Source: an uncultured Candidatus Saccharibacteria bacterium
Lineage (GTDB): Bacteria; Patescibacteriota; Saccharimonadia; Saccharimonadales; Saccharimonadaceae
Assembly: GCA_938030095.1 (NCBI GenBank)
Contig: CALHGK010000010.1
Location: 71,975-135,974 of the forward strand
Direction of reading: 5' to 3'
DNA: 64,000 nt
Below the pieces are notes generated by a model, which did no database searches, was not told the origin of the DNA, and saw nothing but the letters and a program-made list of their open reading frames with translations. This document shows, piece after piece, positions 19,050 to 42,434 of this stretch; positions within the stretch are counted from its first letter, which is position 1; the number at the start of each line of letters is the position of its first letter. The translations under genes and the position numbers were made by a program.

Positions 19050-19130
19050 ATTATCTGTAATATGGGTATTATAGCACTTTTATATACAGTTTGTGTTTTT
19101 ATTATTTATTGGAATTTGGTAATTCCTAAT

Positions 19131-19260: not shown

Positions 19261-19359
19261 GTAATATTACAGAGATGTTACTTTAAATTTAATGCCACCC
19301 GTCTTGACACACGCGTGCCCATCTGGCGCTTTCGGTGCGAGGACTGTATACTAGGAAGT

Positions 19360-23959: not shown

Positions 23960-24021
23960 AGTCGGTTTTTTCTTATACTAAAAAGAGTCATTGTATAACA
24001 AACAAGGAGCAGCAAAAACCA

Positions 24022-25404: not shown

Positions 25405-25428
25405 GCCGTGTGTTTTTTTCGCTACACC

Positions 25429-25641
25429 TGTGGAAAAGTCGTGTATAGTGAGCCGTATAACCAGCGGACAGCTCGTGGGCAGCCATCCACAGCACCAAGA
25501 GCGCACCACCCTCCAGTCTCATTGGCTGGTGGATAACCACCGCTTCTCCCCGATTTATCCACGCCAGCGATCGCAGCGTTTTGCACAGATAGTTAGCAAG
25601 GATTACCTCTGTTATCTATCATGGTTTCCACAGTATCCACA
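25429..25641. promoter_or_regulatory. DnaA-box cluster in dnaA-dnaN intergenic region (second half of split oriC)
   Basis: TGTGGAAAA 25429-25437; GGTGGATAACC 25528-25538; TTATCCACG 25555-25563; GTTTCCACA 25624-25632; GTATCCACA 25633-25641. Confidence 0.7.
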
Positions 25642-26789: not shown

Positions 26790-27788
26790 ATGAAGATAAC
26801 GCGGCTAGCAGTGCAGCATGTGCGAATCCATACGCTCAAGACGCTTGACCTTGAGCCAGGCACAACGCTGATTTCTGGCCCAAATGGCTCTGGCAAGACA
26901 TCACTTATCGAGGCGATCCATATCGCGCTGCGTGGGACGTCCTTTCGTGGTAGTGACGAGGCGGTCTGCCAGCATGAACAAAAAAGTTATACGATTGACC
27001 TTGCGACGGATGAGCAACATTACCGCGTCCAGTACGATCGCCGACATGAGACGAAGCGCAAGCGTTTTATCGTTGATGGCACAACCTATGGTCGCCTCCC
27101 CTATGGCAAAAAATATCCGATCGTCCTCTTCGAGCCAGATACGCTGCGGATCATTACTGGCTCGCCGCAGCGTCGGCGTGATTTTCTCGATACGCTCATC
27201 CAGCAATATGATGCGCAGTATAGCCACGAGCTGAGCCGCTACCACCGAGCACTGCAGCAGCGAAATAAATTGCTCAAAGACCCTGCTCTTAGTGATGCGG
27301 CACTTTTCTCGTGGAATCTTATCTTGAGTCAGTATGGTGCGTCGATCATTACCAAGCGCCAGCGGGTGCTGCGTTATCTTAGTGTAAAAAGCAGTGCTAT
27401 GTACCAAAGTATTGCGGGCGTGGCGGATAGTGTTGCGCTACACTACTCGGAGGAGCGTAGCATGACCGCGCAGCAGCTCCTCGCCGAATATGAGCAAAAA
27501 ACAGCGTATGATACAGTGGTTGGCGCAACGAGTATTGGTCCGCACCGACACGATATCACAGTATTATTCCGTGGTAATCTAGCAGCCAAGACTGCATCGC
27601 GGGGCGAAATCCGCACCATTGTGCTTGCTCTCAAATTTCTCGAAGCAGCCTACATCCAGCAGCAAACAGGCCAAGCGCCACTCATTCTGCTCGATGATGT
27701 CTTTGGCGAGCTCGACCAACAACGCCAGCAGCGTCTCCTCAGCGAATTCGTCGATAACCAGATTGTGATGACGAGTGCGGTGGGATAG
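26790..27788 (+). CDS. recF: DNA replication and repair protein RecF
   Basis: 332 aa; Walker A GPNGSGKTSLIEAI; C-terminal LLDDVFGELD signature. Confidence 0.85.
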   Translation: MKITRLAVQHVRIHTLKTLDLEPGTTLISGPNGSGKTSLIEAIHIALRGTSFRGSDEAVCQHEQKSYTIDLATDEQHYRVQYDRRHETKRKRFIVDGTTYGRLPYGKKYPIVLFEPDTLRIITGSPQRRRDFLDTLIQQYDAQYSHELSRYHRALQQRNKLLKDPALSDAALFSWNLILSQYGASIITKRQRVLRYLSVKSSAMYQSIAGVADSVALHYSEERSMTAQQLLAEYEQKTAYDTVVGATSIGPHRHDITVLFRGNLAAKTASRGEIRTIVLALKFLEAAYIQQQTGQAPLILLDDVFGELDQQRQQRLLSEFVDNQIVMTSAVG

Positions 27789-27796
27789 ACTTCGCC

Positions 27797-28525
27797 CTAT
27801 ATATCAGTGTACATATAGCACCATGGTGGATTATTGCCGCCACACGGAACAACACGCTTCTTTTCTAGTTCTTCGGTAGTGGGATATATTTTGCCATTGA
27901 TCTTTATGTCGTATTTATCAATATCTTTGTCGTGTTTCTTAATATAGTTGAGGGCTTGGTCGACTTGCGATTGGCTCGTTTTGTCTGTTGTGACGATGCA
28001 CACACCAAGCCGATTTGACCGGTCGGTCGTGCGGTATGGGTTGCAGGTAACAATATAGAACCAGCGCGAGTAGTGAGGAAGTTTATTAATAAGAGGGCTC
28101 TCTTGAGATATCTTTGCTCCTCCTTGTGTTGCTTCGTGGCCGCCGATTGCTTCGCGGATATCGTTGTATTTTTCCTTCTTCGCTTCTCTCTTCGCTTCCT
28201 CAGTTAGTGGCTTCATGGCAAAGAACAGCTTCTTTTCTTCGCCTGGCTTGAGGTCTAGCTTGACCTGGTGGTCGGCAAAGCCTTTAGCCCGAAATGTGTA
28301 TATATGCGACCCGCTCTTTACAGCGTGCTTTGCCCGCGTTGTTACCTTTTGGTCTTTGATTGTATCATACGAGACAGTAAGGCTATCGGGGATAGCATAG
28401 ACGAGGATAGTGCTATCGTATTTGAGATTATCAACAAAGCGATATATCGTAAAGGTAATCATGCCAATGGCAAGCAGGGCAAATAGTGCGATAATTTGGT
28501 TACGTTTTTGATTGAGTATTTCCAT
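27797..28525 (-). CDS. bitopic membrane protein, VirB8/PrgL-like position and topology (terminal gene of T4SS operon)
   Basis: 242 aa; short N-terminus, one TM (IIALFALLAIGMITFTIY), ~210-aa extracytoplasmic domain; last gene after the hydrolase genes as prgL/traH are in Gram-positive T4SS. Confidence 0.4.
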   Translation of the reverse strand: MEILNQKRNQIIALFALLAIGMITFTIYRFVDNLKYDSTILVYAIPDSLTVSYDTIKDQKVTTRAKHAVKSGSHIYTFRAKGFADHQVKLDLKPGEEKKLFFAMKPLTEEAKREAKKEKYNDIREAIGGHEATQGGAKISQESPLINKLPHYSRWFYIVTCNPYRTTDRSNRLGVCIVTTDKTSQSQVDQALNYIKKHDKDIDKYDIKINGKIYPTTEELEKKRVVPCGGNNPPWCYMYTDI

Positions 28526-29879
28526 TGACTGTCCTCGCTAATACAACACCCGAGTTTCCAAGCATCCACTCGAGTGTTCCTTGTTTGATATAAGATGGGA
28601 CGTGATCGTATTGAGAAGCCTGCGCACCAACAAATCCATTACCAAGATCGCCTAGATAAAACAATGTATGGCCATTAAAGACTAAGATGTCGCCAGGCTG
28701 GAGATCACCCATACTTGGAGATTCTTTGGTATAGTATTTCTCGGGATGGCTGAGGACATAAGGCCGCTGATTAACCGTTCCAGCCGGTGGGTAATTTGGG
28801 TCTGCTCCACTCATACGCATCACTGTTGAAACATATTTACCACAATCGGTGTAGTCGGGACCTGCCTCCGGATTATACTGCTGGCGAGCATTTCGGTATT
28901 CTTCTTTTTCACCGCCATTACCAACTCGTCGTCCATCCTCCCAGGCAAGACTCTTAGCTGTTTCGACGATTGTTCCGCCAGCGGCACTTTTGCTGCCGTT
29001 TGCGGTACAGCCTGTGGCTGATGCATTTTGGGCGTTGGCACCATTGTTATTACCACCTTCGACTTGGATTTGGGATGAAGGCGGAGACAAGTTCTCTTCC
29101 TTGACAATTTGCTCAATCTTATCAATATATTCGGTAACAGTCGAGACATATTGGCTGTCGGTCGCATAGCCAGCATTTTTAATCTCCTGGAGGTATTTGC
29201 GCGGGTCGCCAGGATATTTAAGGGCTTCGCTGTAACGTGAATTGCTGGTGATAAAATCGCCATAGCCGAGCCAGCCAGCCTCGACGGTAGGATATTTGCG
29301 AAAGCCATCGACGATTGTTGTTCGGCCAGAGGCGTATTCCTCCTCGGTCTCCATATCGATCACCTCACCCGACCAGTTCCCGCCAGCCTTGATACCATGG
29401 AAATTATTTGCCTTGACGGTAAGCCCAGACTTGCCATAACCAGATTCAATAACCCCCTGGGCAAGGACTGTTTCGTATGGTGTGCCATACTTTTTGTTCG
29501 TTTCGACAGCCATCTTGACGTATTTGCGGACAAAGTCTTTGAGATCTTCTGCTGCAGTCCCGCTACTGCCATCACTGCTGCTGGTGGAGCTGGTAGAGCA
29601 GGTGGCTGCGTCGGGGTCGAAATGCTCGATATAGTTACCAGAAAAGAACCTTGCGTCTAAAGCTGAAGCGGGAGTTGACACGAGAGAGAATACTATCGCA
29701 AAAACAAGAGAGCTTATTCGATAGATAGTTGTGCAGTGAGAAAAGAGTTGTGTTGATGGAGAAAAAAGAGACGAAAAGCGAAGCAGTTGTTGGTGGGTGT
29801 GTATTTGGCAGCGAGTGACAAACACACAAAAAGAGTAGAAGCACTGAGTAAAAATAGCATGAGCCCACCGTATGATCAT
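28500..29879 (-). CDS. secreted peptidoglycan hydrolase: N-acetylglucosaminidase (FlgJ/Lyz2-type) domain + C-terminal CHAP/NlpC-P60-like domain
   Basis: ORF to 29951; start ATG 29879 chosen (ATGA overlap with upstream stop 29876). ETVLAQGVIESGYGKSGL...NNFHGIKA glucosaminidase motif; C-terminal TDCGKYVSTV...GDILVFNGHTLFYLG Cys/His papain-like pattern. Confidence 0.65.
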   Translation of the reverse strand: MIIRWAHAIFTQCFYSFCVFVTRCQIHTHQQLLRFSSLFSPSTQLFSHCTTIYRISSLVFAIVFSLVSTPASALDARFFSGNYIEHFDPDAATCSTSSTSSSDGSSGTAAEDLKDFVRKYVKMAVETNKKYGTPYETVLAQGVIESGYGKSGLTVKANNFHGIKAGGNWSGEVIDMETEEEYASGRTTIVDGFRKYPTVEAGWLGYGDFITSNSRYSEALKYPGDPRKYLQEIKNAGYATDSQYVSTVTEYIDKIEQIVKEENLSPPSSQIQVEGGNNNGANAQNASATGCTANGSKSAAGGTIVETAKSLAWEDGRRVGNGGEKEEYRNARQQYNPEAGPDYTDCGKYVSTVMRMSGADPNYPPAGTVNQRPYVLSHPEKYYTKESPSMGDLQPGDILVFNGHTLFYLGDLGNGFVGAQASQYDHVPSYIKQGTLEWMLGNSGVVLARTVNGNTQSKT

Positions 29880-32842
29880 GATGACCCTCCAACACGTCGA
29901 GCATACTCCCAGTGCCAAGCCTCTGGTTTGCTGCCGTTTGGTTCGGCCCATTCGGGATGGACATAGCCATATTTATGCGCATTGGCTTTGAGCCAATTGT
30001 ATGTAGAAGAACCAAAGTCTCCCACGCTGATATCTGCTGCAAGCCCCCAGCCATGGTTGGAGCTGCACGGTGGCGCTGGCTTGGCGAGGCCACCTTGGTA
30101 TAGTGGGTCACCTGGTGTTGCGTATGCAATTTGCCGTTGGCAGTCTCGGTATGCCTCGTTAATGCCGAAATCTGCACCAGTTTCTGCTTTGTATGCTTTG
30201 TTCATTTCTTCCATAGCGGCTGCAGCTTGCTTGTGCATCCTCTCGCCGGACGAAAATGACAGAGCTACTAAATCTCCTTCTGCTAGCTCGCCATTTTTGA
30301 GGCCGTTCCATGTTGATATAGAATCGCCACCTTCTGTAGCAGGCTGAGCTTGGTTAAATTCTGGCTCCCCGACTGCCGGGCCGCTGGGGGTACTACTGCT
30401 AGATTGGCTTGCGCCACCTCCACCAGAGATCGGTTCATTGTCCATAGTGTCGACGACGCGTTGGTCGATTGTGAAGAGTGCAGCATTGACTTTTTCCTCA
30501 GAGTCAAACTTGCAATAAGCGGTGTCGACGCCATTCTCGCCATCAGTACCTTTGCCACACTTCTCTTGCCATTCTTTGAGCGTGCCGCCAGTTGCTTCGC
30601 CTGTTTCTTCGTTGTATTGCCCAGCGAGAGATTGGGCAACCTCGTCGGGATCTTTATCAAGATTGAGTGCGCCATACGATATATTACAAAATGGCCCAGC
30701 AGCGACATCCTTGGGGATATTTGGGTCATCGCATGCTTGCCAAATCTTTTTCATGCGATCTGTCTCAGTATTGGCGCTGACTTTGTTACCAAAGAGAGCC
30801 GGTACAATATTCTTAGGGAGCGACACAAGATTATGAACAAAGCTACTTAAGTTAGAGAAGCTACCCATATATGGAATAAACGAACTGTAGAGGCTCCCCA
30901 CAAAGGTATACGGCGATGTTGCGTCAAATGGGCTCCGCTCAACGCGTTGCTCAGCAGCATAGGCAAGGTTGAGACGAGCTGTTTCTCGTTCGTAGGCGAT
31001 TGTTTGGTCGACATTGAGCATACCGTTGCCACCCGCTGCTGCTGCTTCGGAGAACATATTTACTGCACCACTCGTGAGGGCATCTCCAGCATCTTCACCA
31101 ACAGTAGCGCTGCTCACGAGAGTGCCCGCCATAGAATTTATGAGCTTACTGAGAATTGGTGCAAACACAGCAGAAATAACAGGAGCAGCTAAGTTTGAAA
31201 CCAACTCACCAACGACGCTTGTCCATCCACCAGCAACACTCATGAGAAGCTGACCGCCAGTACTGTTGATGAGTTTGCAGGATGTCTTTAGTGCACTAAT
31301 ATTAGATCCTAAGGCATTGGCAACGCCACCCATCTTCCGAGCCCAGCCACCACCAGGGACGTACTCCGTCCAGTTGGAGGTACCAGTTGGAGCTATTTCT
31401 TTCATTAGGCCATATTTGAGCCCCATTCCATCAGTAGCTGCTTTTTTGGTTACGTTGCCAGATTTGTTGACGAGTACAGTAGTGAGAATCGTCCCAAGCA
31501 CAGCAACGGCCATATAGTCTGTTGAGCCGGCCTTAATGTTGTCTGCCATCGTAAAGAACATCATGGCATAGCTAATAACCTGCGTCATTTGGATGAGACG
31601 AATCGTCTTGCTAATAGACTGAGCACCATCTTGTACCATACAGAGGCCGCCAGCAATCATGGCGACAATATTGCCAGTCTTGCCCACGCCATTTTTGATA
31701 ATATTGGCTGCTGCCTCTTTGCTGATAGATTTTGTTGCTCCTTCGGCGCCTTCACTTACTGCTTCTTTCGCGGCTTTGCCAACATCGGTGTCTTCAGTAA
31801 CCTTTTCTTTGCCTTCATCGTCATTTTCCTTGGCTTCGTATTTGCCATTCATTTCTTTGCCTTTGGTATTTTTGTCGATGTTTTCGCGGACTTCTTTCTC
31901 GCTTTTGGCACCAGCCAGTTTGTTCTTCTTGGTAAGAGAGAACTTTTTTATGACGCCATTGTTAAACACTTTATCGAAGAAAGCGACCCAGCGCGGTGCA
32001 TATGCGCGGTGCATAATTGCTCTGAACTCTGGATTCTCGTAGTATAATTTTTTGAATTCTGGGGGACCAACCGTTTGTTTTATACCATTGTCGTAAGTCA
32101 CCCGATAGTTTGCAACCTTTTCACCAAGAGTAGATTTCTTTAAGTCAAATTCTTCGGAGGGTTTAATAACATTCCCTTCTTTATCGAGAGCTTCAACTTG
32201 ATTTTTTTCAAACTGCTTTAGTAACCGGTTCGAGACACGATTATATTTACATCGTACGTTCACTACTGAGCAAATACCACTAGTTGCGGTGTTTTGGATA
32301 CGCTTGAACATTACCTTATTAGCACGCCGCTCGAAGCTGGTATTTTGTGAATTCCAGTGGTTGGTGAGATTTTCTTTGATATGAAGCAAAAGTAGGCTTG
32401 GCCCACCAAAAAATGAGAGCATTGAGCCACCACCAAGCAAAATAGCGCCAAGGATACCCATTGGTCCGCCCTTCTTAGAGAATATCGCACTCCGCGCTTT
32501 GGCAAAGCGAGATTTGGGCTCAGAGAGTTTACTATCGGGTGGAACTACCTTGTTGAACCAGTTATTATCGCTCCAGTTGCTCCCTGGCGCGCCCTCCTGG
32601 CCTCGAACAGAGTTGGCATAGTCGCTGCCAGTTGCGCCAGTGCCGCTGGCGTTGCTGCGTGACGATGAACCACTCCCACTATTCTCGCGTGACTGAAGGT
32701 CTTGGGCGGTGCTGGACTGGCTATGATCACCACTGCCAGCGTGGTTATTCCGACCAGCGAAGGTGTCGTTGCTCCAATGCGTATTCCCCGGATTATGCCG
32801 GTCGAGGTCGGGTTTTTGCTGGGAGGGGATGGGGGTAGGCAT
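29876..32842 (-). CDS. large membrane protein (PrgK-like position) with C-terminal peptidase M15 (VanY/L-Ala-D-Glu endopeptidase-type) cell-wall hydrolase domain
   Basis: 988 aa; Ser/Gly/Asn-rich N-terminus, several TM segments in the central region; C-terminal GERMHKQ...AYRDCQRQ...SSNHGWGLAADI...HPEW zinc-binding M15 motifs (SxHxxGxAxD). Confidence 0.6.
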   Translation of the reverse strand: MPTPIPSQQKPDLDRHNPGNTHWSNDTFAGRNNHAGSGDHSQSSTAQDLQSRENSGSGSSSRSNASGTGATGSDYANSVRGQEGAPGSNWSDNNWFNKVVPPDSKLSEPKSRFAKARSAIFSKKGGPMGILGAILLGGGSMLSFFGGPSLLLLHIKENLTNHWNSQNTSFERRANKVMFKRIQNTATSGICSVVNVRCKYNRVSNRLLKQFEKNQVEALDKEGNVIKPSEEFDLKKSTLGEKVANYRVTYDNGIKQTVGPPEFKKLYYENPEFRAIMHRAYAPRWVAFFDKVFNNGVIKKFSLTKKNKLAGAKSEKEVRENIDKNTKGKEMNGKYEAKENDDEGKEKVTEDTDVGKAAKEAVSEGAEGATKSISKEAAANIIKNGVGKTGNIVAMIAGGLCMVQDGAQSISKTIRLIQMTQVISYAMMFFTMADNIKAGSTDYMAVAVLGTILTTVLVNKSGNVTKKAATDGMGLKYGLMKEIAPTGTSNWTEYVPGGGWARKMGGVANALGSNISALKTSCKLINSTGGQLLMSVAGGWTSVVGELVSNLAAPVISAVFAPILSKLINSMAGTLVSSATVGEDAGDALTSGAVNMFSEAAAAGGNGMLNVDQTIAYERETARLNLAYAAEQRVERSPFDATSPYTFVGSLYSSFIPYMGSFSNLSSFVHNLVSLPKNIVPALFGNKVSANTETDRMKKIWQACDDPNIPKDVAAGPFCNISYGALNLDKDPDEVAQSLAGQYNEETGEATGGTLKEWQEKCGKGTDGENGVDTAYCKFDSEEKVNAALFTIDQRVVDTMDNEPISGGGGASQSSSSTPSGPAVGEPEFNQAQPATEGGDSISTWNGLKNGELAEGDLVALSFSSGERMHKQAAAAMEEMNKAYKAETGADFGINEAYRDCQRQIAYATPGDPLYQGGLAKPAPPCSSNHGWGLAADISVGDFGSSTYNWLKANAHKYGYVHPEWAEPNGSKPEAWHWEYARRVGGSS

Positions 32843-32848
32843 GACGGG

Positions 32849-34684
32849 CTACGACCTCACTGGCTGCTGGTATAAGCTGTTATTGGCCACTGGGTTGGTG
32901 GTGATGAATTGCGTCTCGGTCTCGCTGGCGAATATGCGGATATGAACGTGGTTTTGCCCAGCAAAGAAGAGGCCATCGCCCACCGGGAAGTTAGACAGGC
33001 GCTTACGCTCCTCCTCGGTGAGCTTAAAGACCTCAGCTAGCACATCCACTGCACTGGTCGATTGCTTAAGCAAGAGCTGGAGCGAGCTGTTTGCTACAAT
33101 AGCTCGGCCTTTCTCGCTCCCCATAAAGTCCTCTACGTCCTGCGTGATGGTCGTTAGGCCCAGAGAGTACTTACGAGCTCGCTTAGCTAGGCTGTGGAGA
33201 AACTCCGCCGAGTCTTCGTACTTCATCAGCTGCCAGGCCTCATCAACGATGAGCATCCGCCGGCGCTGTACGGTGCGGGCAATATTCCAGATGTGGCTCA
33301 GCACAATATACATTGCCACTGGCCGCAGGTCGTCTTCGAGGTCGCGGATATTAAACACCACCATGCTGTTATTAATATCAACGTTACTCTGCTGGCTAAA
33401 AATACCAGCGAAGGTGCCTGTGGTGTACTTCCGTAGGCGCTGAGCTAGCGATGGCCCTGCCCCACCCATGTGAAGGAGGGTGTCGTAGAGGTCAATGATC
33501 GTCGGTGGCTGAGAATTATGTGTTAGTGGATCGCTGGTAATACCAGCCCGGGCGTAGGTATCGATGAGCGCTTGGTCAAGATCGGCCTCCTCGGCTGGGC
33601 TGAGCAAGGCAATCTGTTGCCCGCCCACCAACGTGCCGCCCAGCATAAGCTTGAAGAGTCGCTGCAGGGTGATGAGATTAGCACGCAGCGCGTCGGTTGC
33701 TTCGTCGCTGTCGATTACTCGGGGGAGGTCGAAGGGGTTAATCCGCGTATCGCTGCTGAGGCTGAGGCGAATGTAGCTGCCGCCGACGGCATCGGCCAGC
33801 TTCTGGTACTCGTTCTCCGGGTCGATGACGAGGATGTCGGTGCCAAGCATCATACTGCGCAGTGCCTCGAGCTTAACGGTAAAGGATTTACCAGCACCAG
33901 ACTTTGCAAAGACGACCATATTCGCATTCTCAAGGCTAAAGCGGTCGAAGATGACCAGCCCTTGGTTGTGCTGGTTGACGCCGTAGAGAATCCCTTCGCC
34001 GTCACTTAGGTCGGCACTGGTAAAGGGAAAGCTTGTGCTCACCGCGCCAGTGTTCATGTTGCGGCGGACTTGCAGCTGGTCGGTCATTTGGGGGATGGTG
34101 CTGTTGAGGCCTTGCTCTTGCTGGTTGCTGGCGGTTTTACTGTAGACCATATTTTGGCCAAAGATTGTCTCGATGACGTGCTGGACAAAGCTCAGCTCCT
34201 CGAGGCTATCGGCATAGAGTGTGACGTAGAGCCCAAAGCGAAAGAAACGTTCGGCTCCAAGCTGTAGCTGGTCGCGCAATTCCTCGGCATCGGCCAGGGC
34301 AGCTTCGCGAGCTGGGTCACGCACTTTACCCTTCTCGGAGTTCAGCGCCATATCAGCCTCAAGCTGCGTCACCTTCTTGCGGAGGTTGTTGAGGACGATC
34401 TCCGTCTCGACAGGGTAAATAAACATGCTAATATCAAGCACTTGATCGATGTTGATCAATCCTGACAGCCAGCCTGTGTAGAGTTCACGTGGGTAGCCGT
34501 AGATGTAAAGTGTGCGGCCATACTTGGTGCCAATGCGGAAGTACGTGCTGTGGATCTCCAGACTGCTGGGAGCGATTAGGTCGCGCAGCGTCGTCATCCC
34601 CTTGATAAAGGCTTCCTCTACCTCTGCTTGCTCGCGCTCGCGCTGCTGGGCAGCAATGTCGATTGGATCGGGTCGTCGTGCCAT
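32849..34684 (-). CDS. virB4: type IV secretion ATPase VirB4/PrgJ/TraE family
   Basis: 611 aa (Gram-positive short form); Walker A FAKSGAGKSF, Walker B RRRMLIVDEAWQL (DEAW hallmark); N-terminal YGRTLYIYGYPRELYTGWL motif. Confidence 0.85.
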   Translation of the reverse strand: MARRPDPIDIAAQQREREQAEVEEAFIKGMTTLRDLIAPSSLEIHSTYFRIGTKYGRTLYIYGYPRELYTGWLSGLINIDQVLDISMFIYPVETEIVLNNLRKKVTQLEADMALNSEKGKVRDPAREAALADAEELRDQLQLGAERFFRFGLYVTLYADSLEELSFVQHVIETIFGQNMVYSKTASNQQEQGLNSTIPQMTDQLQVRRNMNTGAVSTSFPFTSADLSDGEGILYGVNQHNQGLVIFDRFSLENANMVVFAKSGAGKSFTVKLEALRSMMLGTDILVIDPENEYQKLADAVGGSYIRLSLSSDTRINPFDLPRVIDSDEATDALRANLITLQRLFKLMLGGTLVGGQQIALLSPAEEADLDQALIDTYARAGITSDPLTHNSQPPTIIDLYDTLLHMGGAGPSLAQRLRKYTTGTFAGIFSQQSNVDINNSMVVFNIRDLEDDLRPVAMYIVLSHIWNIARTVQRRRMLIVDEAWQLMKYEDSAEFLHSLAKRARKYSLGLTTITQDVEDFMGSEKGRAIVANSSLQLLLKQSTSAVDVLAEVFKLTEEERKRLSNFPVGDGLFFAGQNHVHIRIFASETETQFITTNPVANNSLYQQPVRS

Positions 34685-35643
34685 TAAAAATCTCCTTTGT
34701 GATATGCTGTCGAGGTTGGGACAGCTCCCTCGCCTTTGCGGACGAAGGTGGAAGTCACGTTATTAAAGTCGCCCAGCGGCTCGCGCACTGCTGTGTCGGG
34801 GTTGTACATGTTGTAATAGAGGGTGCCGAGCTCTTTGGTCTTGAGCTGCACTGCCCGTACACCAATCTGCATCAAGCCGTTGAGGATGGTGTCAGCCCGG
34901 TTGCGGATCTCCTCACGGGCTCGCTCGTAGGTTTCTTTGCTGATTTTCGTCACGGTGTTGGTGTTCTTGGGAGCGAAGAGCTTCGTGAAGAACCCTTTAC
35001 CTTGGTCGAGAATCGTCCCCTCCCCTGCTGGGTAATACGGAATGACGACGTAGAAGCTCTTGTCCATGATGTTGGCGTTTTGCGAGAGGTCGTCGATGAA
35101 GTTGATATAGTCTTCCATTAGCACACTCAACAACATATTATCTTGGGTGCGCTGGATAGCAACGAGCTTATCCAAATACGGGCCAATATCCACCCGCTGC
35201 GAGCGAATACAGATCTGCACCGGGAAGTACAGTGCATTGAGAAAGTTCTGGTAGCTATACTCTACCCCCTCGCGCTCACGAGCGCTCATGAGGTCAAAGT
35301 TGATCGACTCACAGGCGATGACGGCGCGGAAGCTACCATCACCCATGATGATCATATCATCGCGCAGCTCCGAGAGGAGGAGGCTATTCTGCGTGGTAGC
35401 GGGCTTGGGTGGAGCCTTTTTCTTGGTGTCTTGGGTGGGCTGATTATTCGTATTACCTTGCACAGCTGGTGGCTGAGCCGGTGCTTGCACTGCGGGGTAA
35501 TTGCCCTGTGGCGGAGCGGGATACTGCGGGTAATTGGCTGGTGCCTGGCCCGCTGGCGCAGCGCTCTGGCCTTGGCTATACCCAAACTGGCTGGGTGGCC
35601 CAGCTGGTGGTTGTTGATTGTTGGGTGAATTTGGCGACACCAC
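34684..35643 (-). CDS. T4SS operon protein of unknown function with 75-aa Pro/Gln/Ala-rich N-terminus
   Basis: 319 aa; stop overlaps virB4 start (TAATG at 34682-34686); first 75 aa low-complexity (PPAGPPSQFGYSQGQSAAPAGQAPANYPQYPAPPQ...), then a globular domain with no motif I can name. Confidence 0.4.
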   Translation of the reverse strand: MVSPNSPNNQQPPAGPPSQFGYSQGQSAAPAGQAPANYPQYPAPPQGNYPAVQAPAQPPAVQGNTNNQPTQDTKKKAPPKPATTQNSLLLSELRDDMIIMGDGSFRAVIACESINFDLMSAREREGVEYSYQNFLNALYFPVQICIRSQRVDIGPYLDKLVAIQRTQDNMLLSVLMEDYINFIDDLSQNANIMDKSFYVVIPYYPAGEGTILDQGKGFFTKLFAPKNTNTVTKISKETYERAREEIRNRADTILNGLMQIGVRAVQLKTKELGTLYYNMYNPDTAVREPLGDFNNVTSTFVRKGEGAVPTSTAYHKGDF

Positions 35644-35658
35644 TCTCCTTCTTATTTC

Positions 35659-37521
35659 TTAGCGCAAAGGGATGACAATCTCATCATCGTCATCATCCTG
35701 ACTAGCCTGCTCTTGATGTTGAATCCGATTGGCTTCATTGGCAATGGCAGCAACGGACAAATCAGAGTTGCTGGCTAGTCTAATTATATCAGGCGAGACG
35801 GTGTTTGTGCTAGTGTTTGGCGGCAGATTGTTGCGTTGCTGGGCGAGCTGCTCCTCGCGCAGGCGTTCCTCGCGCGTGGGGGTTGTCTTGGCGTAATAAC
35901 TGGGGTCGAGCGGCTGAATGACTGACTGATGAATGCTGGGGTATGGGTTATAGCGCACCGCCATATCGATGACATTTTTATCATCAGCCAGTGCTGAGCG
36001 ATCTCGGTAGGACACGGCGGCTGGGGTGGGTGCAAGAGCTGGTGCGGCTTGAACTGGTGCAACGGGTGGCTGCTGAGGTGGTGCTGGCTGCTGGGAAGGG
36101 TGTGGCGTAGGAGTGTGTGGATAATTGGGAGTTGGCGCTGTTGGGGTCGGTTGCTCTGCAGGTGTTGAAGTGAACGATGGCTGAGTATCGGTAGGAGGTG
36201 CTGCTTCAGCTGGTGGGTCGCTGGGCGTAGTTGTCGTGTGCGCGGCTGACTTTTGGGGTGGTACAAGTGGCACAGCATCAGTGGTAGGAGTGGCGTGCTG
36301 GCGCAGGTTGGCGTAGATCGCCTCGAAGGATGGTGTTTCTTCTGGCTTAGACTCTGGCGCAGCTTCTGCTGTGGGCTTGGGCGGTGTGTAGGGCTTGCTG
36401 AGGGCGTCTGGCAAGACCGAATCATGCGGAATAACGGCGGGCAGTGCCATTGGCAAAGACTGGAGTGAGTCATGCTCTCGCGGCATGGGCTGTGGCTCGG
36501 CAACAGGTGTTTCGTCATGCGCCGCATCATCCACTGGCGAAATCTCGTATACCTCGGTAGATTGCTGAGGTGGGTATGGGTTTGGTTGATTTTGGTAAGC
36601 ACTAGCATCGAGTGAAGGAACTTGCTGATGCGACGACGCCGTGCGATTCTCCGGGAAGCTCGTGGATGAATACGACACTGCTGGGCGCTGAGGTTCTGGT
36701 GTTGGGTATGGCGGCTCAGGCATACGAGGCTGAGATGGTGATACTGGTGCAAAGCCAGCGGCATCAACGGGTGGCTGGTACGGAGGTGTAGCCTGTGGTG
36801 GGATAGTTGGAGCTGGCTGCGGTGCTGCCTGGTATGGTTGCGGCTGAGCCTGTGGCCAGGCTGGCTGATATGGCACAGGAGCTTGCTGGAGTGGCTGCCC
36901 GTCGGCTACGGCAGGCAGTGCGGTTGGTGGAGCTTGCATGCGCTCAATGGCGGCTCGGCGCCGAGCTTGGTTGGATTGCTCGATGCGCCGCGTCATTGCT
37001 CGCGCTTCGCTGCTGTTGTCATCAAACATATCCGAAGTCTGCTGCGCCTCGAAATAGACATCACTAATCATCGACCCCTGTGCATCGGGCACGCGGGTGT
37101 GACGAATGGACCAGCCATGAGTATCAGCCAGCTGAGACAGATACGCTAGGCGGCGCTCGGCCTCGTCTTGGCTGAGGTTCTTCGTTCGCTCAATCTCCAC
37201 CTTCTCGGGCACTGTAATCTCGATGAGTGAGCTGATGCCATCAGGCTGCCACATGCGCCGGCGTGGCTTGGTGTAGAATGATATCACCGCCGCGAGGTAA
37301 ACTTCCATTGGCTGATCCTTACGCAGCGGCAAAGCTAATGCACCAAACAGCAGAATAATCGGCACCGGAATAACCGCCAGCGGCAAAAATACCTGCGATA
37401 ATCCCCATGCCAACGCAATTCCCGCCGCCGCAACCAGCAGATAAATAAACTGGCGAAAGCTAAACGGCCCAAGAATCTTATCCTCTGCCTCTACATCCTG
37501 CGCAACCTTATATCTCGACAT
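35659..37521 (-). CDS. PrgI/VirB3-like T4SS membrane protein with ~500-aa Pro/Gln/Ala-rich C-terminal extension
   Basis: 620 aa; N-terminal DVEAEDKILGPFSFRQFIYLLVAAAGIALAWG plus second helix VIPVPIILLFGALALPL matches PrgI-family two-helix pattern; remainder is low-complexity PQ-rich (QPQPYQAAPQPAPTIPPQATPPYQPP...). Confidence 0.5.
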   Translation of the reverse strand: MSRYKVAQDVEAEDKILGPFSFRQFIYLLVAAAGIALAWGLSQVFLPLAVIPVPIILLFGALALPLRKDQPMEVYLAAVISFYTKPRRRMWQPDGISSLIEITVPEKVEIERTKNLSQDEAERRLAYLSQLADTHGWSIRHTRVPDAQGSMISDVYFEAQQTSDMFDDNSSEARAMTRRIEQSNQARRRAAIERMQAPPTALPAVADGQPLQQAPVPYQPAWPQAQPQPYQAAPQPAPTIPPQATPPYQPPVDAAGFAPVSPSQPRMPEPPYPTPEPQRPAVSYSSTSFPENRTASSHQQVPSLDASAYQNQPNPYPPQQSTEVYEISPVDDAAHDETPVAEPQPMPREHDSLQSLPMALPAVIPHDSVLPDALSKPYTPPKPTAEAAPESKPEETPSFEAIYANLRQHATPTTDAVPLVPPQKSAAHTTTTPSDPPAEAAPPTDTQPSFTSTPAEQPTPTAPTPNYPHTPTPHPSQQPAPPQQPPVAPVQAAPALAPTPAAVSYRDRSALADDKNVIDMAVRYNPYPSIHQSVIQPLDPSYYAKTTPTREERLREEQLAQQRNNLPPNTSTNTVSPDIIRLASNSDLSVAAIANEANRIQHQEQASQDDDDDEIVIPLR

Positions 37522-37566
37522 AGTTTATGTATTTATTATAGCATGAGGGGGATAGATAAGACTTCA

Positions 37567-40500
37567 CTAGTCTTGTTTTGCATTATCGCTCATAACGCGA
37601 AAGCGCTTAGTCGGGTCTTGACTCCACTCTCTAGCTTTGGATGCACGTCTATAGATCGCCTCATTACTCTGCATTTTTGCGTTGTAGAGTTGAGACCGCA
37701 GTGCTGCGTCAACTGCCAAGCCAGTAGCTTGTCTTGCTCGCATAAGCTGATCTTCGCTGATGCCACTAATACTGTCACTATTAAGAACTTCCATCATATC
37801 CTTGAAGGCTGGCTCGTCCATATCGGCCATCTTGGGTGCGTTGTATTTACCGCCTAGAGCACCTTCCACAACAGCTTGTTCATAATTAAATTCACCTGCG
37901 CGTAACTGGTCTGCAGCTTTCCCAGTCCACCATGGGTTCTTTGATGCGGCGGGTGATCGCAATAAAGCATCAGCCAAAGCAGCTCGATCACCTGATCCAA
38001 GATCATCATTGGCATGCTGTGTCAGAGCTCGCAACTGGCCGGAATTAGCACTTTTAGCTGCCTCTTTAATAATATATCGTCTATCAAAATCAGAAAAGGC
38101 TTTGGGGTCAAGAACATCGCCTTTTACTAGTTTGCCGTCCTTATCTCTTTTATAGCCCTGGATACCCTCTTCCCCCATTGCTAGCTGAAATATATCACTT
38201 TTTGAAAGAGCTTGTTCTTTCCCATCTTTATCTAGATACCGATAGTTTTCAAAGAATGACTCGGAAAGTTTCAGCTCATCCTCGGCCTGTTGGTCAATAA
38301 GACGTGAAGCGGTACTTTGGCCACGACGTACGGATCGGCCGATTGTGCCAGGAATGTTGCGCGCTTTATCGTTAATCCTCTTCATACCCCAACTTTGTGC
38401 TCGTCTAAAGGGGTTCTTACCTGTATAGGTACCAGCTTGTGCCTGAGCTCGTGCTAACTCTTTAGCTCGCTCTCTTTCTTGCATATATTGTCCGTAAGGT
38501 GATCGCTCAAGAGCTCCTTGTGCTTTGTTGCCAACAAAGTTTCCTGCTACTTTACCCATCTTCTCAGTTATATTTGCAAGACCCATCATAGAGGTCATCA
38601 TACTCGTTATACGTGACACTAGTAGAAGTGGTGTAAAGGTAAGAACAGACCCGATAATCTGTAAAACAAAACTTGTCTCACCCTTCATATTATTGATGAC
38701 TGTTGCACCAAGAATACAAGCACCATAGAGACAGCCAATAACAGGATATACTATAAGGAGAGTTTTAAATGTAGCCCACCATTTTTTGAACATACCTTCC
38801 GTGTTTGGTAATAAAAGAGCAACAAATGCAAGTGGTGCTAAGATTACCATAAAAATAATTATGGCTTGTCGAGCACCAAGTAGAAATACAGTTACAGAAA
38901 CAGTTACGACAATGAATATAAGACCAGTAATAACAGCCGATAGAGCAAAGAATCCTACAGTAAGACCAATAGCGGTGGCTGCAAGACCAACTAGCCCATC
39001 ACCTACTGCACTACCTTTTGTTGACCATCCGCCTTCTGGTCCAGCACCACTACCACCGAGTGAGCCAATAAAGTTAAATGAAGAAGACCCAATAATATTA
39101 GAGATATCAATTAAAATCGCACATACATAAAAAGACAAGTTAACCAAAACAATAGTCATAAGAAGTTTGGGTAGTAATTTTTTTATACCATAATTACTAA
39201 TGCCTAAACCGGTTACCTGAGAATAAATAACAACAAGGAATGCAATAATGAATACAATATTTGCAATATCGCGCATTTTTGACCAATAGTAGAAGGTAGA
39301 ACCTTCGTCTCGATTAGTGAGTATTCCAGAATTTATTTCAAGCATATGGGCAAGGATACTCGCAGAGTCTGAAGATATCTTTGCAAGGAAATTAACAACT
39401 GGACAAACAAGCCAACCAATACCATCAACAGCGCACTGGGTACCAGTTTCTTCTCCGTCTGCTGCTTGCTCAGCTCCTTCACCAGCTGCTGCATCGGCAC
39501 CATCTTTCTTCGCCTGGTCCTCTGCATTTTTTGCAGTTTCCTTTGAATTAACTTTGTTGATCGCATCTTTTATCTCTTTTTCTGATAGACTAGGCCACTT
39601 TTTATGCATACAAGAGGCGAGAGTCTCTTTTACAACAGCATCTTTGTCTTTGTTCTTCTCCTTTTGTCCTGTTACAGTGTTGAGTGTGATTTGCTTATAC
39701 CCTGCCTCATAGCATTTTTTGATAGATTTTTCCCATCCATCATCCTGACATTTTGATTGATCTGCTTTGCACGCTTTATCCTTTAGATGGGCTAAAGATG
39801 ATACATACGAATTATAGACAGCATCCTTTGCTGCAGAGTCTTGAGCCGCTTTTATTGCCTTATCTGCTTGACTTGTAACTCTTTTTGATTTGCTTATACA
39901 CCCTTCATTATCCGGTTCATCCACTGTGGTGCCTGAGTTACCATGATCTTTATAGACTGGTAGTTTGTGAGCAGAATATTTTGCGATTACTTTCTCAACA
40001 ACGTCTTTGTTATTACTATTTTTGCTGATTTTATTATATGATATGTAACCATTCTTGGCTGCATCCGCGAGTTTCACCTCACCTTCACTAAATTTTGATC
40101 GAGGAGCTTCAGACGAAAGCGAACAGTATGTCTTAAAGTCTTTATAATAGTATGTATATAGCTCCCCCGGCGATAAATATTTATCCTCTTTGTCGGTTGT
40201 AACACCAATTTTTGCTCGAATAGCCTTATTGACTGGTCCTTGGCGACCATTTGGGCCTGCTACCCAGGTGCCCTCACTGTTGTTGCTATAACCTGCTGCT
40301 TTCAAAAACTCTTCAGCACTACTGAAGCCCCATTTTGGTATTGCCTCAGTGTAGAGCTGACTACAGGTCTTTACAGCACCAAATAGAGTTTTCTTTTTAG
40401 TATTGAATCCTTTTCCTTTGAGCTGGCTGCCCGTGACATCATTACCGCTTATCTCATCAATACCCTCAAAACAGCCCTCATGAATATTATTGGTGTCTTG

Positions 40501-40677
40501 AGTATCAGGGCCAGGAATACTGTCCTGCGCTTTGTAATACGCCCACTTGTCTATTTTGTCATCATGGTCATCGGCATATGCCTTTTGATCTATAAACACG
40601 CTAGAACTAAGTACAAGAATAATAGCTAATGGGAAGAGTGAAAAGCGCTTCAGCTTAGATACAAGAGAGTTTGTCAT
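37567..40677 (-). CDS. VirB6/PrgH/TrbL-like polytopic T4SS membrane protein with ~420-aa extracellular N-domain and ~330-aa C-terminal domain
   Basis: 1036 aa; signal peptide (FSLFPLAIILVLSSSVFIDQKAYA), Cys-containing Lys-rich N-domain, 6-8 TM helices at aa ~430-720, then a charged cytoplasmic tail. Confidence 0.5.
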   Translation of the reverse strand: MTNSLVSKLKRFSLFPLAIILVLSSSVFIDQKAYADDHDDKIDKWAYYKAQDSIPGPDTQDTNNIHEGCFEGIDEISGNDVTGSQLKGKGFNTKKKTLFGAVKTCSQLYTEAIPKWGFSSAEEFLKAAGYSNNSEGTWVAGPNGRQGPVNKAIRAKIGVTTDKEDKYLSPGELYTYYYKDFKTYCSLSSEAPRSKFSEGEVKLADAAKNGYISYNKISKNSNNKDVVEKVIAKYSAHKLPVYKDHGNSGTTVDEPDNEGCISKSKRVTSQADKAIKAAQDSAAKDAVYNSYVSSLAHLKDKACKADQSKCQDDGWEKSIKKCYEAGYKQITLNTVTGQKEKNKDKDAVVKETLASCMHKKWPSLSEKEIKDAINKVNSKETAKNAEDQAKKDGADAAAGEGAEQAADGEETGTQCAVDGIGWLVCPVVNFLAKISSDSASILAHMLEINSGILTNRDEGSTFYYWSKMRDIANIVFIIAFLVVIYSQVTGLGISNYGIKKLLPKLLMTIVLVNLSFYVCAILIDISNIIGSSSFNFIGSLGGSGAGPEGGWSTKGSAVGDGLVGLAATAIGLTVGFFALSAVITGLIFIVVTVSVTVFLLGARQAIIIFMVILAPLAFVALLLPNTEGMFKKWWATFKTLLIVYPVIGCLYGACILGATVINNMKGETSFVLQIIGSVLTFTPLLLVSRITSMMTSMMGLANITEKMGKVAGNFVGNKAQGALERSPYGQYMQERERAKELARAQAQAGTYTGKNPFRRAQSWGMKRINDKARNIPGTIGRSVRRGQSTASRLIDQQAEDELKLSESFFENYRYLDKDGKEQALSKSDIFQLAMGEEGIQGYKRDKDGKLVKGDVLDPKAFSDFDRRYIIKEAAKSANSGQLRALTQHANDDLGSGDRAALADALLRSPAASKNPWWTGKAADQLRAGEFNYEQAVVEGALGGKYNAPKMADMDEPAFKDMMEVLNSDSISGISEDQLMRARQATGLAVDAALRSQLYNAKMQSNEAIYRRASKAREWSQDPTKRFRVMSDNAKQD

Positions 40678-40771
40678 ACACTACATATAATACACAAAAA
40701 TAAGTAAGAAAACCAGCCAAATACCATAAGTAATGTATGGTATTTGGCTGGCTTGGATGAAAGCTAGATTT

Positions 40772-41917
40772 TTAGCCTTCTTTGATATCGTTGAGAGGCG
40801 CGGTAACCCTTGGTTTGATTGCGCGAGCTTTATAGTCGTTTTCGTTTGTTGGATAAAAATAAGATACACGGGGGAACGAATGTACTGTGTAGTGGTTTGT
40901 GTTTCGATCTTTTTCGGTTATCTGCCTTTGGGTCTCAAGAGCGACGCGGTATGATTCTCCATTTTCGTATTCTCCATTTTCGTCTCCTATCTCTTGCACC
41001 TCACAGTATGCTGCCGAATATACCTGGGGTTGATTGGTTTCTTTGCCGTCGTTGATCGGGAATGGGTCTTCGTATTCTGCCATGATCGCACATTTCGTAA
41101 CGCGGAGAGCAATGCGGTCTTCTTTTTCTGGTTTTTTGCCTTTCGTATGAGCTTCATAAGCAGCTTCGACAAGGCGGCCATAATAACCGTGGGGTTTTGA
41201 TTGATTTTTATCGCCGCCATCTTTACTCTCATCATTGGAATCTCTGACGATATTAGAATGTGGGACGTCTATATAGTCTGCCAAACATCGCAGCACTGGC
41301 CATACTTCAACTTCTCTACCCTCTGCATTTGTGAATAAAGCTTTTGATTGGGCGTCATCACAGAGATCACGGAGAAGTCGATCGACATTATCAAACCATG
41401 TAATTGCTAGCTCTTTTGCTTGATTAGCACCTGATTCGGTAAGAATTTTCATAATATTGGGATCATCAAAGTTATTGCCAAAGAAGGTTTTACACGCAAG
41501 TCCTTTGTCATAATCACCCATTGTTTTCCACTTTTCAGAGTCAAACTCACTGAGATTCGCAAAGTTATACGACCGGCGAGGTTCGGGCCGCTCACTGCTT
41601 GGTGCGCCAGGCTCTACTGGTTCTTGGGTAGGTGACGGAGTTTCTGTCGCTGTGGCAGACGGGGTTGTTTCTGAGCTCGAGCTTGGAGATTCTGATGGTG
41701 ATGGTGTCTCTGAAGAGGCTGAGCTAGATCGGCCACGACCTAAAAGAGCTGCTGATAGACTTGCTCCAAAAGCCAAGGCTGCACCACCGAGACCTAAACC
41801 GATAAGGAAGCCTCGTCGACCGGTTTCTTTTCGTTCACGTGTGGCTGCATTATCTGGTTTTTCAGATCCGCTAACGCTTGCCGGATAACTATTGCGTATT
41901 TCTGTCATAAGCTTCAA
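40772..41917 (-). CDS. secreted protein with twin-arginine (Tat)-type signal, Ser/Thr/Pro-rich linker and uncharacterised C-terminal domain; first gene of T4SS operon
   Basis: 381 aa; TGRRGFLIGLGLGGAALAFGASLSAA (S/T-RR-x-FL motif + h-region + AxA); STP-rich linker; C-terminal ~260 aa unknown. Confidence 0.4.
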   Translation of the reverse strand: MKLMTEIRNSYPASVSGSEKPDNAATRERKETGRRGFLIGLGLGGAALAFGASLSAALLGRGRSSSASSETPSPSESPSSSSETTPSATATETPSPTQEPVEPGAPSSERPEPRRSYNFANLSEFDSEKWKTMGDYDKGLACKTFFGNNFDDPNIMKILTESGANQAKELAITWFDNVDRLLRDLCDDAQSKALFTNAEGREVEVWPVLRCLADYIDVPHSNIVRDSNDESKDGGDKNQSKPHGYYGRLVEAAYEAHTKGKKPEKEDRIALRVTKCAIMAEYEDPFPINDGKETNQPQVYSAAYCEVQEIGDENGEYENGESYRVALETQRQITEKDRNTNHYTVHSFPRVSYFYPTNENDYKARAIKPRVTAPLNDIKEG

Positions 41918-42344
41918 TCCTCCCCAATACAGGATTAGTGGTTATGTGTGCTTATTATATGCGCACTTGCGTTTCATGCTACCATTGTTTGCGCGGCAGG
42001 TCAAATATTTTTTGGCCTCTGTTGAGAAAAATGAAAGGCGCATGCACACAGAGGTTAGTATAGAAATATATTCGAACGATATTTTTTGGCAAAAATGGGA
42101 GATATTTTATACATACCGCATGATAAAGAAAATATGGTGGTTTGCAACCACCTAATCGTACAAGAATAATTATTGATCCTTCCCTATACATTTAATATTT
42201 AAAATAATTAACGATACAGACTGACAAATATAACACCAATACACACTCTCATAGGTAAAATACTTGCATGAGCAAGTTGCAATATATCCGAGCAACTCAT
42301 ACATATTGCCACCCCACCCCACATCCGCTATAATACAGAGGTAC

Positions 42345-42434
42345 GGAGAGGTGCAAGAGTGGTTGAATTGGCACGCCTGGAACGCGTGTGTGGCGGCAAC
42401 GTCACCCAGGGTTCGAATCCCTGTCTCTCCGCCA
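42345..42434 (+). tRNA. tRNA-Ser (anticodon GGA), type II with long variable arm
   Basis: GGAGAGG acceptor, D-arm CAA-GAGTGGTTGAA-TTG, anticodon stem-loop CACGC-CTGGAAC-GCGTG, T-arm CAGGG-TTCGAAT-CCCTG, encoded CCA; TATAAT at 42329-42334. Confidence 0.85.

Follow-up and report, generated by a model that had tools for sequence, protein, structure and literature searches.

What does a type IV secretion system (T4SS) do on a bacterial chromosome, a short distance from the replication origin and with no conjugation genes beside it? This question is raised by positions 27797-41917 of a 64-kb window, the whole stretch of DNA that was analysed, from an oral Candidatus Saccharibacteria (TM7) bacterium. 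The listing of open reading frames (ORFs) confirms eight co-directional minus-strand genes in this interval and reproduces all the coordinates that an earlier note on this DNA had given them. The reading that best explains the evidence, to which we assign a probability of roughly 0.85, is a chromosomal, origin-proximal T4SS, orthologous to SEML1_0004-0013 of Southlakia epibionticum, that serves epibiotic interaction rather than conjugation. The locus is the published and already known Saccharibacteria T4SS; the earlier note had interpreted it rightly in outline and wrongly in three assignments. Few machines have been demonstrated to be essential to the epibiotic lifestyle of Saccharibacteria; this T4SS is among them, and its significance has been set by earlier work (McLean 2020; Shaiber 2020; Wang 2023; Quinonero-Coronel 2025; the 2025 FEMS T4SS review). 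The present analysis revises the parts inventory of one oral lineage, in which a VirB4 N-terminal-like subunit is detached, the head of the cluster is NTF2-like and its tail is a PEGA protein. It also points to a possible break in transcription behind the first gene (gene 1), and it quantifies an invariant motor alongside cassette-like polymorphic envelope parts, which could guide host-specificity experiments.

The identity of the cluster is carried by its core genes. The VirB4 ATPase scores 380.9 bits against the NCBIfam model CD1110 (NF045971), for which the curated cut-off is 325, and bears both a Walker A motif (GAGKS, aa 263-267, window 33898-33884) and the Walker B/DEAW box (aa 480-484, window 33247-33233), in line with the original call of a VirB4 with these two motifs. 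The PrgI domain of the 620-aa protein reaches 48 bits against the Pfam PF12666 cut-off of 27 and holds its transmembrane (TM) hairpin within aa 5-90, so that the previous description as a PrgI/VirB3-like two-helix protein stands. A Pro/Gln/Ala-rich low-complexity tail of ~500 aa follows this domain. Orthologues of PrgI in most other Saccharibacteria measure ~300-380 aa compared with 620 aa here, and the tail is lineage-specific. Together, the CD1110 match, the PrgI domain and the dnaA context support the proposed chromosomal core of a Gram-positive-type (MPF-FATA-like) T4SS near oriC.

Hydropathy analysis of the 1036-aa protein displays a signal or anchor at aa ~11-31, a Cys-containing external domain (~430 aa) extending to ~aa 460, a membrane-embedded block (aa ~466-690) of five to six TM helices and a C-terminal cytoplasmic domain of ~340 aa. 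Six of the 26 orthologues aligned in register match TrbL/VirB6 (best E 1.6e-5), the allele of one relative (L001) matches TrbL with an E-value of 4.1e-5, and other alleles bear a precomputed TrbL_3 annotation. By way of these orthologues and alternative alleles, the 1036-aa protein would be an "extended VirB6", and the VirB6-like assignment made beforehand holds by the same route.

Table 1. Features of the T4SS locus and of related elements, in window coordinates.
Feature	Coordinates	Strand	Basis or remark
dnaA and DnaA-box clusters, likely oriC	23836-25641		Pfam; box count; cumulative GC-skew minimum at 24-26 kb
Bitopic PEGA-type protein, 242 aa	27797-28525	-	PEGA homologues, model, fold search; equivalent of SEML1_0005
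Two-domain peptidoglycan hydrolase, 459 aa from ATG 29879	28500-29951	-	Signal-anchor, GH73 glucosaminidase, C-terminal NlpC/P60-CHAP clan domain
Large membrane-associated protein, 988 aa	29876-32842	-	C-terminal M15 (VanY-type) D,D-peptidase; equivalent of SEML1_0007
VirB4 ATPase, 611 aa, CD1110 family	32849-34684	-	NCBIfam NF045971; Pfam P-loop_TraG, AAA_10, DUF87
TrsD/TraC-like protein, 319 aa	34684-35643	-	Stop overlaps virB4 start (TAATG); NCBIfam, Pfam via orthologues
PrgI/VirB3-like protein, 620 aa	35659-37521	-	Pfam PF12666 over aa 5-90; TM hairpin inside domain
Extended VirB6-like polytopic membrane protein, 1036 aa	37567-40677	-	Orthologues match TrbL; hydropathy
Terminator-like hairpin (function predicted)	40710-40754	-	Between gene 1 and VirB6-like gene; 19-bp stem, 7-nt loop, T-rich tail
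Gene 1, bitopic protein, 378 aa from ATG 41908	40772-41917	-	RR motif, anchor, NTF2-like fold; equivalent of SEML1_0012
VirB2-like T4SS pilin, 179 aa	59060-59599	-	Pfam PF18895, 34.1 bits against cut-off 26.6; two C-terminal TM helices

The position of the cluster bears directly on its role. The dnaA gene (23890-25404) lies on the plus strand and is followed on the same strand by dnaN and recF (Pfam); the end of recF is 8 bp away from the T4SS cluster, and the two are convergent. Further along the dnaA side are rnpA, yidC and a KH/R3H (Jag-like) gene, and the upstream side of the cluster is occupied by a tRNA-Ser gene (42345-42434) and a MacB-type ABC transporter. The window contains 26 DnaA boxes compared with 12.5 expected, with clusters at 23836-23960 and 25429-25641 that flank dnaA. 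Judged by these clusters and by the GC-skew minimum, the 3' end of the T4SS cluster is situated ~2.2 kb from the likely origin, which bears out the distance of ~2 kb claimed before.

Conservation of this setting emerges from a species-level scan with the 611-aa VirB4 as query and one genome per species. All matches are Candidatus Saccharibacteria/Saccharimonadia genomes, with identities of 77-100% (80 genomes). The order VirB6-like, PrgI, 319-aa protein, VirB4, large protein and recF-dnaN-dnaA is kept across these 80 species-level genomes, and the genes flanking the cluster are housekeeping genes that are conserved throughout the same set. Because both the gene order and the flanks are conserved in this way, the locus is a core chromosomal feature of the class and not a mobile element.

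This conservation decides against an integrated conjugative element, or a remnant of one, with its relaxase and coupling protein located outside the window. Such an element would account for the membership of VirB4 in the CD1110 family, which is typical of Firmicutes conjugative elements, and for the H-I-J-K genes standing in the same order as in pCF10. However, the cluster occupies one and the same site, with recF-dnaN-dnaA on one side and housekeeping genes on the other, in 80 species-level genomes, which essentially refutes this reading. Pfam scans of nearly all ORFs in the 64-kb window gave no VirD4-type coupling protein, relaxase, VirB11 or integrase: T4SS-DNA_transf, TrwB and TraG-D_C have no match in any window ORF, and relaxase families have none within the 64 kb, oriT not being part of the search. 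The absence of VirD4, relaxase and VirB11 that had been claimed for the vicinity of the cluster is thereby extended to the whole 64 kb, and the pairing of a relaxase with a coupling protein immediately beside the cluster, named beforehand as the finding that would speak for an ordinary conjugative element, did not turn up. In addition, VirB4 is under the extreme purifying selection of a core gene, with 0 amino-acid compared with 62-145 synonymous changes, and relaxases occur in only 103 Patescibacteria genomes, rarely near virB4 (PMC12102498). We consider a conjugative element extremely unlikely and reject it given the class-wide synteny.

Earlier studies offer a greater level of detail about what a T4SS of this kind does. 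McLean 2020 described a Saccharibacteria T4SS region with VirB4, VirB6 and PrgI and drew a comparison with effector T4SSs that have no coupling protein. Shaiber 2020 reported a conserved operon in oral TM7 and is the source of the metagenome-assembled genome behind L001, which has an identical VirB4. Transposon sequencing (Tn-seq) by Wang 2023 (Cell, PMC10633639) found the cluster SEML1_0006-0019 to be essential for epibiotic growth of S. epibionticum ML1, most of its individual genes scoring as essential; the authors described the system as most like Gram-positive conjugative systems, with no recognisable coupling or relaxase proteins, and suggested that it may export proteins. Quinonero-Coronel 2025 (PMC12102498) placed the VirB4 clade next to MPF-FATA, noted its closeness to dnaA and the absence of a relaxase, and catalogued TrsD, PrgI, VirB6, VirB1-like and VirB2-like components. 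The T4SS is interpreted as non-conjugative in both studies (PMC10633639, PMC12102498), and the 2025 FEMS review counts the Patescibacteria systems as an accepted new branch within the T4SS superfamily. The suggestion that the cluster would be a host-interaction machine if the organism were an episymbiont agrees with the Saccharibacteria lineage of the window and with the essentiality of the orthologous cluster for epibiotic growth (PMC10633639), and the preference for a protein-secretion or cell-contact role over a conjugative one matches the published non-conjugative reading (PMC10633639, PMC12102498).

A direct comparison with S. epibionticum ML1 (SEML1_0004-0013) displays the same position, convergent with recF and downstream of dnaA-dnaN. 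Starting from recF, the two loci share a PEGA protein, a lysozyme/glucosaminidase with cysteine peptidase, an M15 protein and VirB4, followed by a TrsD-like protein of ~300 aa, PrgI, a large VirB6-like protein and an RR-motif NTF2-like protein; they also share the absence of a relaxase or coupling protein nearby. In contrast to the single VirB6-like gene of the window, S. epibionticum has two (0011, 0013), as well as an extra prealbumin-like gene (0004), which is not present in the window allele but has a counterpart in the alternative allele of L001. The window cluster has no adjacent pilin array, carries the MacB-type ABC transporter and tRNA-Ser upstream instead, and its PrgI differs by the ~500-aa low-complexity tail. 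The combination of VirB4, TrsD-like protein, PrgI, VirB6-like protein, downstream peptidase and lysozyme-type hydrolases with a dnaA/dnaN position places the cluster in the Patescibacteria/Saccharimonadia T4SS class. A coupling protein, a relaxase, plasmid or integrative carriage and an NTF2-fold protein in the PrgL position, all of which characterize conjugative MPF-FATA systems, are missing from it.

The substrate might still be DNA. A non-conjugative, DNA-translocating T4SS that works with a distal VirD4-like ATPase could feed a nucleotide-auxotrophic cell or drive gene exchange, and several observations point in this direction: in S. epibionticum a coupling-protein homologue (SEML1_0293) is encoded at a distal site, Patescibacteria commonly have VirD4-like genes at a large distance from virB4, and the cassette mosaic discussed below displays frequent recombination in these populations. 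However, the distal coupling-protein gene is reported to be non-essential while the T4SS genes are essential (PMC12102498), and no relaxase is present in the 64 kb. Competence needs comEC and type IV pili, and since deletion of comEC is viable (PMC12857230), the essentiality of the T4SS is unlikely to be due to DNA uptake. We regard DNA translocation as quite improbable for this system.

For a T4SS that serves epibiotic interaction, we hypothesize the following arrangement. PrgI/VirB3 would dock the VirB4 ATPase to the membrane, with a separate TrsD/TraC-like subunit complementing VirB4 as an N-terminal-like part, and VirB4 would power a channel formed by the extended VirB6-like protein with its large external domain. 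The M15 peptidase and the glucosaminidase/NlpC/P60-CHAP enzyme could open the cell wall locally, and the PEGA-domain and NTF2-like bitopic proteins may act as a wall or membrane scaffold or as accessory parts. An external filament is probably built from a VirB2-like pilin whose gene lies elsewhere. Most likely, the machine would mediate interaction with an Actinomycetota host by transfer of protein or another substrate or by pilus-mediated contact. The cytoplasmic core is under extreme purifying selection, and the envelope-exposed parts behave like exchangeable allele cassettes.

The pilin leads to a further explanation, in which the machine mainly assembles a pilus for adhesion, polymerising VirB2-like pilins for attachment to the host without substrate translocation. 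VirB2-like pilins (PF18895) accompany this T4SS class, which is unusual for monoderms, and are essential in S. epibionticum; one PF18895 gene is found within the window, and the exposed parts of the machine are highly polymorphic, as expected of contact surfaces. However, this pilin gene is single and lies outside the cluster, 17 kb away, between tRNA-Ser genes at 58780-58867 and 59838-59930, and neither a pilin array nor a pilin gene adjoining the cluster was found in the window. In many other Saccharibacteria, a pilin homologue sits directly upstream of the VirB6-like gene, and the distant pilin is probably part of the same machine. A pilus alone would require neither the large cytoplasmic domain found in the VirB6-like protein nor so elaborate a set of hydrolases. 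A purely adhesive role is in our view unlikely.

Several points weigh against the assignment to an epibiotic T4SS. The function is drawn from homology and from another species. A coupling protein may sit elsewhere in the genome, as SEML1_0293 does in S. epibionticum. The matches of the 319-aa protein to TrsD and to the VirB4 N-terminus are weak (E-values 5.8e-5 to 4e-3), the VirB6-like allele of the window has no direct Pfam match, and profile searches of the PDB with the orthologue alignments of these two proteins returned nothing for the former and nothing meaningful for the latter. The predicted structure of the 242-aa protein is of low confidence, with a predicted local distance difference test (pLDDT) score of 57, and termination of transcription at the 40754-40710 hairpin is likewise a prediction.

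Comparison with conjugative relatives makes the particular architecture of the cluster clearer. Like the window, pCF10 Prg/Pcf of Enterococcus faecalis, the MPF-FATA prototype, has a VirB4 from NCBIfam family CD1110, a PrgI-family VirB3 directly upstream of the ATPase with a polytopic protein before it, wall hydrolase(s) directly downstream and a monoderm architecture without VirB7/9/10. The coupling protein PcfC, the relaxase PcfG, the adhesins PrgA/B/C and the plasmid backbone are present in pCF10 only. Of the prgH-I-J-K-L order that had been proposed, the H-I-J-K part is reproduced, while the prgL end fails: the PrgL position is taken by the PEGA protein, which is not NTF2-like, and the NTF2-like protein of the window lies at the opposite end of the cluster. 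Alignments of the 319-aa, 1036-aa and 242-aa proteins did not match pCF10 PrgJ, PrgH and PrgL in hhalign, but these were single-sequence templates, which are too weak for the result to count as negative evidence. Bordetella pertussis Ptl and Brucella VirB are also chromosomal, are not adjacent to VirD4 or a relaxase and serve non-conjugative purposes; in contrast to the window cluster, they are diderm MPF-T systems with VirB7/9/10 and known substrates, and beyond VirB4, VirB3 and VirB6 there is no sequence relationship.

The ATPase itself differs from its pCF10 counterpart. PrgJ is a single 796-aa protein, whereas the 611-aa VirB4 of the window covers only positions 173-732 of the 752-position CD1110 model, with the N-terminal region missing and an N-terminal-like part encoded separately. 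The 319-aa protein, with a Pro/Gln-rich head followed by a conserved part, displays weak NCBIfam matches to TrsD (E 5.8e-5), to VirB4_CagE (profile positions 19-185, E 0.003) and to VirB4_plasma, the mycoplasma VirB4 (profile positions 100-233, E 0.004), all three of which fall on N-terminal profile positions. Its orthologues bear the precomputed Pfam annotation PF26593 TraC-like, and its gene is found immediately upstream of virB4 in 80/80 loci, at 52-99% identity. The N-terminal matches of this protein and the N-terminally short VirB4 together support, at the level of remote homology, a split VirB4 in which the 319-aa protein would be the detached counterpart of the N-terminal region. The "extra", unrelated protein of the earlier note is instead similar to TrsD and to the N-terminal portion of VirB4. 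Quinonero-Coronel 2025 (PMC12102498) found that, among the T4SS components encoded near virB4 in Patescibacteria, TrsD-like proteins, a VirB4 N-terminal-like part as a separate subunit, are the most abundant. The pGO1/pSK41 Trs systems likewise have a separate small TrsD, remotely like the VirB4 N-terminus, next to the ATPase (PMC12102498). The 319-aa protein reaches 23 bits against the curated TrsD cut-off of 200, and the pGO1 subclass has no VirB6 homologue, whereas the window cluster has one.

Hydrolytic domains, united in one three-domain protein in pCF10 PrgK, are distributed over two genes in the window. The 988-aa protein has a disordered N-terminus and two weak hydrophobic segments (hydropathy), and its M15 domain (aa 867-981, window ~30244-29900) matches Pfam VanY with an E-value of 1.7e-12, in agreement with the earlier picture of a large membrane protein with a C-terminal M15 peptidase. 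The equivalent SEML1_0007 is annotated as a Hedgehog/DD-peptidase fold (Wang 2023, PMC10633639). The second protein had been described as a glucosaminidase and CHAP hydrolase, and both halves are recovered: the GH73 domain directly (Pfam E 6e-28, with NCBIfam FlgJ/GsmA-type matches) and the NlpC/P60-CHAP clan through orthologues, where the C-terminal Cys/His papain-like domain is recognised as NLPC_P60 in 3/13 and as CHAP in 2/13, with Cys and His nearly invariant. The glycosidase module varies among orthologues (Phage_lysozyme2, SLT). Together, the two proteins bear the three kinds of wall-cutting activity of PrgK.

At the end of the cluster, the 242-aa protein has a TM helix at its N-terminus, followed by a PEGA-type beta-sandwich and then by a small alpha/beta domain at the C-terminus. 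Homologues that bear PF08308 PEGA are few (homology searches found 1 and then 7 relatives), and for this reason the AlphaFold2 model, with a TM helix followed by a beta-sandwich, is poor (pLDDT 57) and the fold search only indicative. Foldseek returned transthyretin-like and carboxypeptidase-regulatory sandwiches only and no VirB8, and a profile search of the PDB with the orthologue alignment gave nothing meaningful. SEML1_0005, its positional counterpart in S. epibionticum, carries a PEGA annotation (PMC10633639). The VirB8-like identity given to this protein before is rejected in favor of a PEGA-type beta-sandwich, on the basis of the PEGA homologues, the sandwich-only Foldseek matches and the PEGA positional equivalent.

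Gene 1, at the other end, had been taken for a secreted protein with a twin-arginine translocation (Tat) signal. The N-terminal RR motif is indeed present (RRGFLIGLG, aa 34-42), together with a hydrophobic anchor and a Ser/Pro/Thr-rich linker to ~aa 107, but it scores 11.3 bits against the Tat cut-off of 16.7, and with this sub-threshold score we do not accept gene 1 as a true Tat substrate. TatA/TatC are not listed in the S. epibionticum annotation tables searched, which is weak evidence. The protein is better described as bitopic and NTF2-like: its model displays a C-terminal domain (aa ~110-370) that starts with a helical region and continues as an NTF2-like fold, with pLDDT mostly 83-97 over residues 110-220. 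The equivalent SEML1_0012 is annotated as "TAT signal + NTF2-like (e4ec6D1)" and is non-essential in Tn-seq (Wang 2023, PMC10633639). If the locus has a VirB8-like protein at all, the fold would point to gene 1 rather than to the 242-aa last gene. The structure 4EC6 is that of pIP501 TraM.

The junctions between the genes were read directly. The TAATG at 34686-34682, in which the stop codon of the 319-aa gene and the start codon of virB4 overlap, the ATGA at 29879-29876, where the stop of the 988-aa gene overlaps the hydrolase ATG, and the 26-nt overlap at 28500-28525 between the hydrolase and 242-aa ORFs are all as previously reported. Gaps among the seven packed genes (37567-40677 down to 27797-28525) are 45, 15, -1, 6, -4 and -26 nt, and gene 1 is separated from the VirB6-like gene by 94 nt. 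The hydrolase most likely starts at ATG 29879 within the ATGA, giving 459 aa, rather than at 29951, since gene callers give 458-462 aa in relatives. Similarly, gene 1 most likely starts at ATG 41908 (378 aa) rather than at TTG 41917, because GGAGG precedes this ATG, its Met is invariant in homologues and the exact 378-aa protein is on record.

The 94-nt gap harbors a hairpin (40754-40710), which was found by a consensus scan and then read in the sequence. Its stem and tail, together with the 33 nt that precede the next ATG, show little or no variation in four relatives (L002, L003, L005, L007). This conserved terminator-like hairpin after gene 1 suggests that the cluster is probably organized as one gene plus a seven-gene operon, or that read-through is attenuated, with the hairpin as the predicted terminator. 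The eight-gene operon assumed originally is hence probably not a single unit.

Variation among close relatives offers a different view of the locus. The comparison covered twenty genomes, namely the window itself, nine genomes of the species scan (L001-L008, L010) and ten obtained by exact VirB4 look-up (L082-L091). DNA of the window matches that of the nine species-level relatives at ~90-93% across the flanks and a core at 32774-37553, with two sharply bounded blocks where the match drops out, 27787-32773 (M15 protein, hydrolase, PEGA) and 37554-41898 (VirB6-like and NTF2-like genes). VirB4 displays 0 amino-acid changes in 611 codons across the twenty genomes, with 62-145 nucleotide differences per pair except for the identical pair L082/L090; purifying selection on it is unusually strong even among core genes. 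The exact VirB4 protein occurs on at least 1000 contigs (1798 index blocks), compared with 6 for the VirB6-like allele of the window. Among the same twenty genomes, the VirB6-like slot adopts 8 allele classes with 23-77% identity, the 988-aa slot 3 classes with 27-54% identity and the 242-aa slot 3 classes; the hydrolase genes have 3, and the downstream genes fall into 3 sets that diverge deeply from one another. The alternative alleles keep the domain logic (TrbL, VanY, lysozyme and glucosaminidase, RR-anchor protein), and alleles of the two blocks are linked into three super-haplotypes, with one recombinant genome (L006).

Nucleotide distance in virB4 is independent of the cassette type, with a mean of 115.4 differences within types and 115.8 between types. 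Between the window and L003, the VirB6-like allele is 98.2% identical in DNA, compared with 89.5-93.7% for the flanking genes, and from this sequence comparison at least one VirB6-like allele looks to have been transferred recently. GC content at third codon positions is 0.32-0.49 in the variable genes and 0.66-0.69 in the core, with 0.32 for the VirB6-like gene and 0.69 for virB4. The pattern points to envelope-exposed modules being exchanged horizontally while the motor that they surround stays frozen. A more specific proposal, which we put forward as a tentative possibility, is that blocks 37554-41898 and 27787-32773 are exchangeable specificity cassettes flanking the invariant PrgI/TrsD-like/VirB4 core. 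In that case, the exposed parts of the T4SS would set the host-strain range or be targeted by host defence, and balanced polymorphism would maintain the cassettes, with homologous recombination exchanging them among these naturally competent bacteria. Shaiber 2020 noted that VirB4 is highly conserved and VirB6 clade- or subclade-specific, and our literature search on earlier reports of T4SS hypervariability found only this one-sentence remark. The cassette-like polymorphism extends that remark, where it is noted in outline only, and is the only aspect of the locus that may repay further work. Just past the upstream edge of the variable block lies the tRNA-Ser(GGA) gene (42345-42434, plus strand), with a near-consensus promoter at 42306-42334; the stretch 42116-42304 is replaced in some relatives.

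The remainder of the window contains other features of the cell envelope and of metabolism. Two genes encode probable surface proteins and candidate adhesins or glycan-binding proteins, one of 768 aa with seven ChW repeats (5794-8100) and one of 955 aa with a right-handed beta-helix and leucine-rich repeats (60388-63255). A glycosyltransferase cluster with a Wzm/Wzt-type ABC exporter (ABC2_membrane, ABC_tran + Wzt_C) extends over 8168-14822 and 17117-20463 and probably makes and exports a surface polysaccharide. Between these two parts (15165-17101) are two genes like the beta (ATP-grasp_2/Ligase_CoA) and alpha (CoA_binding/Ligase_CoA) subunits of succinyl-CoA ligase, an unexpected pair, since most of central metabolism is said to be missing from this lineage. 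At 51269-53676, two divergent FemAB-family genes adjoin a Mur ligase and tsaD, which points to peptide cross-bridges in the peptidoglycan.

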